A stretch of 6,359 bases of DNA from a virus. Taxonomy: Duplodnaviria; Heunggongvirae; Uroviricota; Caudoviricetes. The stretch is from the IMG/VR virus record IMGVR_UViG_2695420514_000020, positions 1 to 6,359 of that record, one strand, 5' to 3'. The notes below the pieces were generated by a model. That model was given only the letters and a program-made list of their open reading frames with translations. It made no database searches and had not been told where the DNA came from. Both the position numbers and the translations under genes were made by a program. Below, piece after piece: positions 281 to 6,359 of this stretch. The first letter of the stretch is position 1. Each line of letters begins with the position of its first letter.

Positions 281-577
281 ATGGAATTCAAAGGTACTAA
301 AGGTAAGTGGGAAATAATGATGGATGGCGATGAGATTAAAATCATCCAGGCAGACTCACTTGAAAATGGCGCAGGCTGGCGTTCGTATATTGCAATCTGT
401 GAGGAAGTTCAACGCATTGAAGATGCCAATCTAATAGCGGCAGCACCTGACCTTCTCGAAGCACTTCAGTTATTACTTAAGCAATCAAAAAATAGAACAA
501 CGACAATATATCCAGAATGGTATGGAGCTGTTAATAAAGGTTTTGCAGCAATCATCAAGGCTCTGGGAGGTGAGTGA
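281..577 (+). CDS. hypothetical phage early protein (98 aa), possibly Ead/Ea22-related
   Basis: ATG at 281 preceded by AGAGG (271-275) with a 5-nt spacer. The track ORF extends in frame to GTG 215, which has no comparable RBS. Stop TGA 575-577 overlaps the next ATG (TGATG). Contains the motif NLIAAAPDLLEAL, which I recall from Ead/Ea22-like lambdoid early proteins (memory only, unverified). Confidence 0.55.
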   Translation: MEFKGTKGKWEIMMDGDEIKIIQADSLENGAGWRSYIAICEEVQRIEDANLIAAAPDLLEALQLLLKQSKNRTTTIYPEWYGAVNKGFAAIIKALGGE

Positions 578-672
578 TGTGCGAGTTTTACGAAGCAGAT
601 ATCAAACGCCCAGAAATGGCAAGTGATGCGACATACGTGATTATTTCGCGGCAAAGGCTATGCAAGCAATGA
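577..672 (+). CDS. small ORF (31 aa); possible 5' part of a frameshifted small gene
   Basis: ATG 577 with a strong SD GGAGG (566-570) and 6-nt spacer, overlapping the upstream stop. The ORF ends at TGA 670-672, while a second frame stays open from 627 to 776. Confidence 0.3.
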   Translation: MCEFYEADIKRPEMASDATYVIISRQRLCKQ

Positions 673-776
673 TTAGCAATCCATCGATTATCGATAATGA
701 TTCTGATGGAGCTGTTAATTATGCAGCAAGCGCTGCATATAAGTTTGCAGACGCAATGCTCAAAGCTCGCGAATAA
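660..776 (+). CDS. small ORF (38 aa); possible 3' part of the same frameshifted gene
   Basis: The frame is open from 627 and the first ATG is at 660, with no good SD (AAGG only 2 nt upstream). Stop TAA 774-776. The translation CDIRDYFAAKAMQAMISNPSIIDNDSDGAVNYAASAAYKFADAMLKARE looks protein-like from before the ATG, which suggests it continues the upstream ORF after a frameshift. Confidence 0.3.
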   Translation: MQAMISNPSIIDNDSDGAVNYAASAAYKFADAMLKARE

Positions 777-779
777 GCA

Positions 780-811
780 CTGTGTATTCATTCCAACGAG
801 TGAATACACGG
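780..811 (+). other. inverted repeat / stem-loop without a U-tract
   Basis: GTGTATTCA (782-790) pairs with TGAATACAC (801-809); the stem extends with C780-G811 and a T781/G810 wobble; 10-nt loop. No T-run follows, so this is not a canonical terminator. It sits in the 185-bp non-coding gap. Confidence 0.4.
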
Positions 812-871
812 AGCAATGTCGCTCGTAACTAAACAGGAGCCGACTTGTTCTGATTATTGGAAATCTTCTTT

Positions 872-3397: not shown

Positions 3398-3906
3398 AAC
3401 AAATGACACTAATTGAGATGGATGGTTTTCTGAAAGGTAAATGCATCCCAAGCGATTTAAAGGTTAACGAAACAAACGCTGAATATCTTGTCCGTAAGTT
3501 CGGTGAACTTGAATCAAAACTGGAAACGGCGTTGCGGGAGTGTCGTTCTGCTGGAATCACGATTGATAACCTTGAGGCTAAATGCACGAAGATGGCTGCT
3601 GAAAATACATCGCTTAAGCAATCTGAGAAGGAATTTAATGACTTTTGTCGTGAGGAGTTTAGCGAATGGGAAGATGATGTTACTGAAACTCCAGCCACCG
3701 ATGCTTTTCTGTCTGAAGTGCGGGCGCAGGGGGTGGATGCTGCTATAGAAGCTGCAAAAAATCTGGTGGCCCAAGAATATGAGTATAAGGATTTCAAAGC
3801 GGCGCAGAGTGATTGCTGTATGCACCCTGGTTCAGACCTGGTAGGGAAGGTTGAAATGACTGAGTGGTTAGTTGACTTTGCTGCCCAGCTTCGCAAAGGA
3901 GAGTGA
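3394..3906 (+). CDS. hypothetical coiled-coil protein (170 aa), possibly Ead/Ea22-like
   Basis: Long + strand ORF with a heptad-like charged helical middle ([44 protein letters not shown]). GGAG 3381-3384 upstream. The antisense ORFs across it are Ser-rich low-complexity shadows. Confidence 0.65.
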
Positions 3907-3907
3907 T

Positions 3908-4465
3908 ATGACCACTATAACCGATAAGAAACAGTATCCAGGCGAGCAATATCTTAATGAGCTGATCACCAACATAGAGTTTGCTGCAAGAGCACCAGTT
4001 GAAGTCGTGAGAGCGATGGCTGCAGAGCTACAGAAGCGGCGCGAAGCTGATAGTGCAGAACCTGTAAGCCAAACTTACAAGTTGCCAGTTAATACACCTT
4101 GCCAAGATGCGCCAGCCCATATCTGGCTGCAAACGGCTGGAGTATGGCCAGAAGATGGCGAGTTAAGCGAATTAACGTGGTGCAGCCACAATCAGCACCA
4201 TGATGACACGCTATATGTTCGAGCTGACCTTGTGAATGGCAACTCTCCGGGAACTCCGGATGGTTGGATAAGCTGTAGTGAGCGAATGCCAGAGGACGGT
4301 CAGCACGTAATTATTTTATGTGATGGCGCATTCGTTCTTTATGCGCAATATCGAGACGGTGAGTTTTTCGATATTGTCCGCAATGGTGATGAATTTTTTG
4401 AAACACAGAGCCGCAATGTAACACACTGGATGCCGCTACCAGAACCGCCGCAGGAGGCAAAATGA
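3908..4465 (+). CDS. DUF551-like domain phage protein (185 aa)
   Basis: ATG 3908 preceded by AAGGAG (3896-3901) with a 6-nt spacer; the track start at 3872 lies inside the upstream gene. The C-terminus DGWISCSERMPEDGQHVIIL...VTHWMPLPEPP matches the DUF551 signature as I recall it. Confidence 0.7.
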   Translation: MTTITDKKQYPGEQYLNELITNIEFAARAPVEVVRAMAAELQKRREADSAEPVSQTYKLPVNTPCQDAPAHIWLQTAGVWPEDGELSELTWCSHNQHHDDTLYVRADLVNGNSPGTPDGWISCSERMPEDGQHVIILCDGAFVLYAQYRDGEFFDIVRNGDEFFETQSRNVTHWMPLPEPPQEAK

Positions 4466-4659
4466 TGGATAAATGCCATGGCATTTTAGGTAAGTTGTTC
4501 GGGCACTCATTCAAGCCGGTGATCGCCAAGAGCGCCGTAAAATTCCCAACACGAATTGAAGGAACGCCGTCATTTGTCAGTAGAACGCTGGATGCCCATC
4601 GGGATGAAGATTATCGTGGCCTTTATTGCAAGCGTTGCGGAAAGGAGGTGAAGCCGTGA
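4462..4659 (+). CDS. small putative zinc-binding protein (65 aa)
   Basis: ATGATG at 4462 follows AGGAGG (4452-4457) and overlaps the upstream stop. N-terminal KCHG and C-terminal YCKRCGKE give a Cys/His...CxxC arrangement. Confidence 0.6.
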   Translation: MMDKCHGILGKLFGHSFKPVIAKSAVKFPTRIEGTPSFVSRTLDAHRDEDYRGLYCKRCGKEVKP

Positions 4660-4772
4660 TTACAGTGCTAGCATGGCATTTAAGTGAAAGCATTTATGGC
4701 TGGATGCTGGCAATTACAGCAATTCAGGATTTGGCAATCACATCGTTTATTTTCAGCCTGTGCAGGAGGTGA
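4656..4772 (+). CDS. small hydrophobic peptide (38 aa), putative membrane micro-protein
   Basis: GTG 4656 is 7 nt after AGGAGG (4643-4648) and overlaps the upstream stop (GTGA). Product MITVLAWHLSESIYGWMLAITAIQDLAITSFIFSLCRR; stop TGA 4770-4772. Not in the track (short). The track ORF 4684-5055 covers the same DNA in another frame. Confidence 0.4.
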   Translation: MITVLAWHLSESIYGWMLAITAIQDLAITSFIFSLCRR

Positions 4773-4776
4773 AGTG

Positions 4777-5055
4777 ATGGACTCCTTCGCGAAATATACG
4801 ATTATTGACTGGATAGCATTCCTTCAGGTTTTGCTCATCTGGTTTTATATGGCTTACAGGAGTGGGCAGTGGATTGTCAGTGTAGCCTGTAGCAAGGGAT
4901 GGCGTTGGTGGAACAGAAAGAATAAAAAAGCACTGGCATTGGATTCGTTTTACGAAGCATTCAATCTTAACAGTCTTCAGCCTGGTTCTGTCGTTGTAGT
5001 CACCACTCAAAGTGGCATGACCATTCAGATTCATAAACCAAAAGAGGAAAAATGA
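4777..5055 (+). CDS. small single-pass membrane protein (92 aa)
   Basis: ATG 4777 is 7 nt after AGGAGG (4764-4769). N-terminal hydrophobic segment YTIIDWIAFLQVLLIWFYMAY, then the basic Trp-rich stretch GWRWWNRKNKK. The track's upstream GTG 4684 start gives an implausible Cys/Trp-rich leader with no SD. Confidence 0.6.
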   Translation: MDSFAKYTIIDWIAFLQVLLIWFYMAYRSGQWIVSVACSKGWRWWNRKNKKALALDSFYEAFNLNSLQPGSVVVVTTQSGMTIQIHKPKEEK

Positions 5056-6167: not shown

Positions 6168-6359
6168 ATGAGCGATACTAGCCTGATTCCTGAGAAAGAA
6201 GTGATGAACAAGCTCGGTGTTTCATCACGTCAGACAATCTGGAACTATACCAAACGGCACGGATTTCCGAAGCCAGTCAGAACCCACCCCAAATCATACC
6301 TTCGTGAAGCTGTTGAAGGGTGGATTCTTAACGGTGGCGTTAATCAGAAATGCTCCTGA
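6168..6359 (+). CDS. AlpA/Xis-family HTH DNA-binding protein (63 aa); putative excisionase or integrase activator
   Basis: ATG 6168 is 7 nt after GGAG (6157-6160). Pattern IPEKEVMNKLGVSSRQTIWNYTKRHGFPKPV...EAVEGWI matches the AlpA/Xis-family arrangement (…EV…G.SR.TIY…G.FPKP…W) as I recall it. The window ends at its stop codon. Confidence 0.65.
   Translation: MSDTSLIPEKEVMNKLGVSSRQTIWNYTKRHGFPKPVRTHPKSYLREAVEGWILNGGVNQKCS

Follow-up and report, generated by a model that had tools for sequence, protein, structure and literature searches.

A probable frameshift pseudogene in the early-left operon of a lambdoid prophage from Escherichia albertii strain 24

Source and features of the locus

The stretch of DNA analysed, hereafter the window, comprises 6,359 nucleotides of a Caudoviricetes sequence (IMG/VR record IMGVR_UViG_2695420514_000020) and is identical to positions 76-6434 of contig BBVF01000037.1 (assembly GCA_001514575.1). 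The BBVF01 contigs represent Escherichia albertii strain 24, from human diarrhoea in Japan in 2000 (Ooka et al. 2015 Supplementary Table S1, PMC4700944), and the draft genome of this strain was produced by Illumina MiSeq sequencing and Platanus assembly at 224-fold redundancy (PMC4700944). The genes here make up the early-left (PL) operon, subject to N antitermination, of a lambdoid prophage. The contig starts 75 nt upstream of the window, so the N, ral and repressor side of the prophage is located on another contig. The gene order in relatives with longer upstream context is repressor, N, ral, Y8K6-like gene, the gene described here, a structured non-coding region, cIII/kil and recombination genes. 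The features of the window are as follows:

281-577, + strand: gene for a 98-aa P22 Y8K6-like protein (phrog_1273, E 2.4e-29; precomputed PF27050 Phage_P22_Y8K6; RefSeq 'XkdD/Y8K6 family')
566-570, + strand: Shine-Dalgarno sequence GGAGG, read from the window and identical across aligned homologues
577-776, + strand: whole frameshifted gene, putative pseudogene of the 66-aa WP_000333101.1 / Sf101_0033 (200 nt, against 201 nt in 20 of 20 homologues)
577-672, + strand: 31-aa upstream fragment ORF, codons 1-19 (577-633) native and codons 20-31 out of frame
634, + strand: 1-nt deletion site, T where homologues have TT (from alignments)
636-776, + strand: native frame R21-E66 and stop TAA 774-776, at -1 relative to ATG 577 (from homologue translations)
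660-776, + strand: 38-aa downstream fragment ORF from ATG 660 (35 aa from ATG 669)
872-895, + strand: rho-independent terminator-like hairpin and T run, 3' of the gene (terminator scan and fold)
962-1132: cIII-like gene (phrog_550)
1522-2424: RecT gene
After RecT in window order: Gp157, then ea22-like and DUF551 genes
6168-6359: gene for an excisionase-like HTH protein

The split gene lies immediately after the Y8K6-like gene and 5' of the terminator region and cIII, and no gene was called at 577-776 in the source record. The ATG at 577 shares a base with the stop codon (TGA, 575-577) of the 98-aa ORF before it, a stop/start arrangement that suggests translational coupling. The 98-aa protein itself (281-574) had no match in the local Pfam scan though it carries the precomputed PF27050 assignment, and the local Pfam copy is probably older than this family.

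The non-coding region downstream of the gene (777-940) is very strongly structured, with a minimum free energy of -60.4 kcal/mol against -35.9 kcal/mol for shuffled sequences (z = -6.7), and folds into four hairpins. The first (782-809) has a 12-bp stem and the second (810-851) a long one, and the stems of the other two (872-889 and 910-929) resemble terminators. Identity to 933W, HK97, H-19B and many Stx phages is 100% over bases 770-850, and in phage mEpX1 the counterpart of the 872-895 hairpin carries a rho-independent terminator annotation. The T run that follows this stem (889-895), which is non-coding, is polymorphic in length and has 2 nt fewer here than in 15 related loci. No Rfam family was matched anywhere in the window at E <= 1; the 777-940 region may hold terminators of the tL2 type, sites of cIII leader processing, or both. 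A 35-aa ORF (1129-1236) lies between the cIII-like gene and a 102-aa gene. Its matches to phrog_17766 (60 positions) and phrog_2123 (52 positions) are confined to their N-terminal 20-32 positions, and this ORF may be another shortened remnant at the place where relatives carry kil. Beyond the window end in BBVF01000037.1 (L041 / L046), a 392-aa integrase gene adjoins the host exonuclease I gene sbcB.

Organization of the split gene

The GGAGG at 566-570 is separated by a 6-nt spacer from the ATG at 577-579, and the reading frame that starts there ends at a TGA at 670-672 to give a 31-aa product (MCEFYEADIKRPEMASDATYVIISRQRLCKQ). In the -1 frame a stop at 624-626 is followed by an open stretch from 627 to the TAA at 774-776, so that both frames are open over 627-672. 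The earliest start codon of this second frame is ATG 660, which would give 38 aa and is preceded only by AAGG at a distance of 2 nt, which is not a usable Shine-Dalgarno sequence. A further in-frame ATG (669-671) overlaps the upstream stop as ATGA (669-672) and would give 35 aa. The first-pass annotation had described this layout from the letters of the window, namely an excellent ribosome-binding site at ATG 577 followed by an early stop, a second frame open over 627-776 that overlaps the first at 627-672, and no good Shine-Dalgarno sequence at ATG 660, and each of these points was borne out in the sequence. It had proposed an ancestral gene of about 66 codons carrying a 1-nt indel near 616-640.

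Comparison with intact homologues

Alignment with homologues placed a single-base deletion at window position 634, inside the interval proposed, where the window reads ACATACG and the homologues read ACATTACG, one T of a TT pair being absent; the longer context is GCGACATTACGTGAT in the homologues and GCGACATACGTGAT in the window. The intact product (MCEFYEADIKRPEMASDATLRDYFAAKAMQAMISNPSIIDNDSDGAVNYAASAAYKFADAMLKARE) is exactly 66 aa in length, or 67 aa with the codon at -3 as start. All 20 full-length homologues fetched have an uninterrupted frame of 201 nt, and the window copy, at 200 nt, shares 98-99% nucleotide identity with them over 200/201 nt. Each half of the gene shows 98-100% identity to the corresponding half of a single intact gene in many other genomes, and the split pattern is not due to chance.

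Megablast of window positions 500-850 against 5,426 complete E. coli genomes gave full-length matches that were all 1 nt longer than the query. The deletion site was covered in 44 complete E. coli genomes, each one base longer than the window and none above 99% identity. A 77-nt query spanning the deletion matched 47 of the 5,426 genomes, none of them at 99% identity, so the deletion is absent from the matching E. coli genomes. A single CDS of 201 or 204 nt is annotated in E. coli S163-2, YZ3-11 and EH01-18-04-A and in phage Sf101. Among the collections of phage and environmental sequences, a 29-nt pattern of the deletion allele was found in neither IMG/VR nor the JGI metagenome contigs, and the pattern of the intact allele was present in 32 IMG/VR contigs. 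The exact intact protein was recorded on 994 contigs. The 31-aa product and a 32-aa version starting at GTG 574 were both absent from approximately 15 billion proteins. Exact patterns with T or TT had no match in a one-genome-per-species collection, the representative genomes of which evidently lack this prophage gene.

The deletion at 634 is the only indel in the window that is found against every homologue covering its site (29 loci). Other window indels are compensated pairs at mosaic joints or lie within non-coding T runs, and where close homologues cover the window no second isolated indel was found; this coverage is thin or absent at approximately 3600-4800.

The window copy is a frameshifted version of a hypothetical gene that is already catalogued (WP_000333101.1; Sf101_0033; PHROGs 2201 and 37111). 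Sf101_0033 (AII27857.1, Shigella phage Sf101) and E. coli WP_000333101.1 are the same gene at 98-99% nucleotide identity, with the same Shine-Dalgarno sequence, start codon and upstream partner gene, and the non-coding 3' region of these loci (window 777-850) also aligns at 98-99% in the same hits; they keep TT and an intact frame, and in the window the gene is split for lack of one T. No homologue has two separate conserved ORFs, which was rejected as an explanation of the arrangement, and the downstream half of the gene is better conserved than the upstream half. The split arrangement was found in BBVF01000037.1 and in AAZPLK010000052.1, both from E. albertii assemblies and the only two contigs of this kind read. 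The only other 38-aa ORF recorded (locus L039) keeps the TT pair and arose by an unrelated replacement of the 5' half.

The gene itself is mosaic. Its first approximately 31 codons are common to a second allele type (P0064, 69 aa) that has a different C-terminal half and occurs in 16 of 32 IMG/VR loci, and the mosaic or module proteins noted for window positions 577-670 and 636-776 are P0004, P0005, P0009, P0026 and P0064. The joints between recombined segments concentrate around the conserved TLRDYFAAKAM core, which is also where the deletion lies. A 107-aa protein of another genome (P0116) begins with the P0064-type N-terminal half and continues as a lambda CIII domain (PF02061). The fusion of this gene with cIII apparently arose by deletion there and adds to the evidence that the region rearranges readily.

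Conserved module and predicted structure

A search of 5.8 billion proteins returned 1,488 relatives of the intact protein, and an exhaustive search of 1.84 billion cluster representatives returned 570 clusters of the module at 50% identity (E <= 0.001). The conserved part is the C-terminal section of approximately 48 residues, TLRDYFAAKAM(Q)...AYxxADAMLKAR, in which T19, R21, D22, A25, A26, M29, A58, D59, A60 and R65 are invariant in a 26-sequence alignment. The module is found alone in proteins of 49-50 aa that begin MTLRDYFAA or MSLRDYFAA, in tandem, and behind many unrelated N-termini, including an HTH. The repaired window protein matched PHROG families 2201, 37111, 20565 and 30599 over residues ~10-66 (E 1.5e-18 to 4e-7), all of which have the 'LRDYFAA...ADAMLKAR' module in common with it; the frameshifted window copy cannot encode this module in one piece. 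Family phrog_30599 is labelled 'transcriptional regulator', and the other three have no function assigned; the label is probably due to members with an N-terminal HTH (e.g. P0261), which this protein lacks. The AlphaFold2 model of the intact protein, built from the 26-sequence alignment, is of medium confidence (mean pLDDT 74.6) and predicts a two-helix hairpin with helices at residues 20-34 and 44-65.

The deletion falls within codon 20, exactly at the start of the module (T19-L-R-D-Y-F-A-A-K-A-M29). The upstream peptide retains only the variable 19-residue leader, and the downstream peptides, which begin at M29 or M32, lack five invariant residues and most of helix 1, both the 38-aa and the 35-aa versions being without T19-A28 of the module. 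The frame of 66-67 codons is interrupted in the window copy, and its products carry residues 1-19 or 29/32-66, so that the invariant core is not present in one polypeptide. With the frame stopped at 670-672 by the 1-nt deletion, the window copy is classed as a pseudogene and not as a functional member of the family, and from the sequence and the structural model we infer loss of function of this allele.

Nature of the frameshift

The locus very probably represents a genuine loss-of-function frameshift, that is, a lineage-specific pseudogene with no recoding signal. Three options had been offered at first pass (a genuine pseudogene, a sequencing error in a homopolymer-free region and, as less likely, programmed frameshifting), and the first of these is the best supported, given 224-fold Illumina coverage and a second assembly with the same deletion.

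It is unlikely that the split gene still functions through a 31-aa peptide and a 35/38-aa peptide, acting singly or in combination, with re-initiation at ATGA as the source of the second. The overlap of ATG 669 with the stop at 670-672 is a geometry known to permit termination-reinitiation, and the family is modular, its C-terminal module occurring with many different N-termini. However, C-terminal fragments starting at M29 or M32 are without T19, R21, D22, A25, A26 and most of helix 1, even the shortest natural stand-alone members (49-50 aa) begin M-[ST]-LRDYFAA, the arrangement is kept in no other genome, and the 38-aa ORF of L039 has the separate origin given above.

A sequencing or assembly error, in which the true genome would have TT and an intact gene, is slightly less probable again. 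Two assemblies, both of a single E. albertii prophage lineage, are the only ones in which the allele has been seen, and the contig end is 75 nt upstream of the window in a region that is repeated among lambdoid prophages, where assemblies are less reliable. The same single T is nevertheless present in a separately deposited assembly (GCA_017566885.1, contig AAZPLK010000052.1) with other contig boundaries, the two contigs being 20,429 nt (AAZPLK010000052.1) and 20,561 nt (BBVF01000037.1) in length; over the 1,725 nt compared AAZPLK010000052.1 does not differ from the window, and both assemblies may share an isolate or read set. The site, as the first-pass annotation had remarked, has no long homopolymer, a TT pair not being an error-prone run, and no further isolated indel occurs in the homologue-covered parts of the 6.4-kb window. 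Random sequencing error was set aside as unlikely on account of the deep Illumina coverage, the non-homopolymer site and the second assembly with the same base missing.

There is also a slim chance, below that of an error, that the allele is not dead and that re-initiation at ATGA yields a 35-aa helix-2 peptide with new or dominant-negative activity. If this were true, the peptide could target intact copies of co-resident or superinfecting lambdoid phages, and its activity could explain the persistence of the allele in the E. albertii lineage.

Restoration of the full-length protein by programmed -1 ribosomal frameshifting or transcriptional slippage is the least credible explanation, and it was rejected for want of a site, a structure and conservation. 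The downstream frame is at -1, the direction of most programmed shifts, and 627-672 is open in both frames, so that a -1 shift between 627 and 669 would be needed. A scan of 577-672 found no in-frame X XXY YYZ slippery heptamer, and the longest run in this interval, the only one of four bases, is the TTTT at 586, which is outside the overlap and 5' of the target-frame stop at 624-626, whereas slippage typically takes a homopolymer of at least 7 A or T bases where the shift occurs. Folding of the downstream RNA (625-720) was unremarkable (z = -1.31; 18 of 200 shuffles folded at least as well). E. coli dnaX and the lambda tail assembly chaperones G/GT, which are recoded genes of this kind, have a conserved slippery heptamer and a two-frame layout kept across homologues; the window resembles them in its overlapping frames with the downstream frame at -1, but lacks both of these properties. 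All homologues use one frame, which implies no selection for a shift site, none has a conserved two-frame layout, and the deletion allele is absent from IMG/VR and the JGI metagenomes. The occurrence of the split arrangement in only two E. albertii assemblies thus decides against programmed frameshifting.

Proposed course of inactivation

Under the favoured reading, a genuine pseudogene, the gene would have lost one T from the TT pair at 634 in the lineage of E. albertii strain 24. Translation from ATG 577, with its good Shine-Dalgarno sequence and coupling to the upstream gene, proceeds through 19 native and 12 wrong codons to the stop at 670-672, and the 46 residual native codons lie in the -1 frame. 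Any translation of these codons, whether from ATG 660 or after re-initiation at the overlap ATGA (669-672), would be weak at best. Neither peptide could form the predicted two-helix hairpin, and the gene would be inactivated. The loss would be tolerated by the prophage because the gene is dispensable, most related prophages being without it.

The distribution of the gene fits dispensability to the prophage, as it was found in 47 of the 5,426 E. coli genomes, against 3,653 genomes matched by other parts of the window. In lambda, most genes between N and the recombination genes are dispensable accessory genes and are often host-directed. Mutational decay of accessory genes in resident prophages has reportedly been treated in a review, 'Bacterial grounded prophages', and the present case likewise appears to be a point indel that kills a non-essential gene and is apparently inherited within a host lineage. 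It differs from that pattern in that only the 577-776 gene looks broken here; the nearby genes for recombination, excision and integration are intact, and a defect of the prophage as a whole does not follow.

Predicted role of the intact protein

The intact protein had no match in Pfam, NCBIfam or PADLOC. Sequence and profile searches of the PDB gave only noise (e.g. TFIIE at E ~1), and a Foldseek search of the AlphaFold2 model against the PDB gave nothing below E = 6. A structure search of BFVD found the same helical hairpin in uncharacterised phage proteins only, of 50,697 phage records searched with tblastn 8 matched, each 'hypothetical' or unannotated, and a full-text literature search for LRDYFAA and its variants found no papers. 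The most likely mode of action of the intact protein is binding to another protein rather than catalysis, as suggested by its size and fold and by the host-directed early genes around it (N, ral, cIII and kil in relatives). Our best guess is that it would be a small protein-binding helical hairpin made early after induction.

Significance for annotation and prophage biology

The reasoning that led to this locus, from a good Shine-Dalgarno sequence, an early stop and protein-like sequence ahead of the next ATG, proved accurate here. Positions 577-776 would be best marked as a single frameshifted pseudogene of the WP_000333101.1 family, and neither as two tiny ORFs nor as empty sequence. The finding adds little new biology: the intact gene, though widespread, is an uncharacterised accessory gene of phages, and the copy in this E. 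albertii prophage is, very probably, simply broken.
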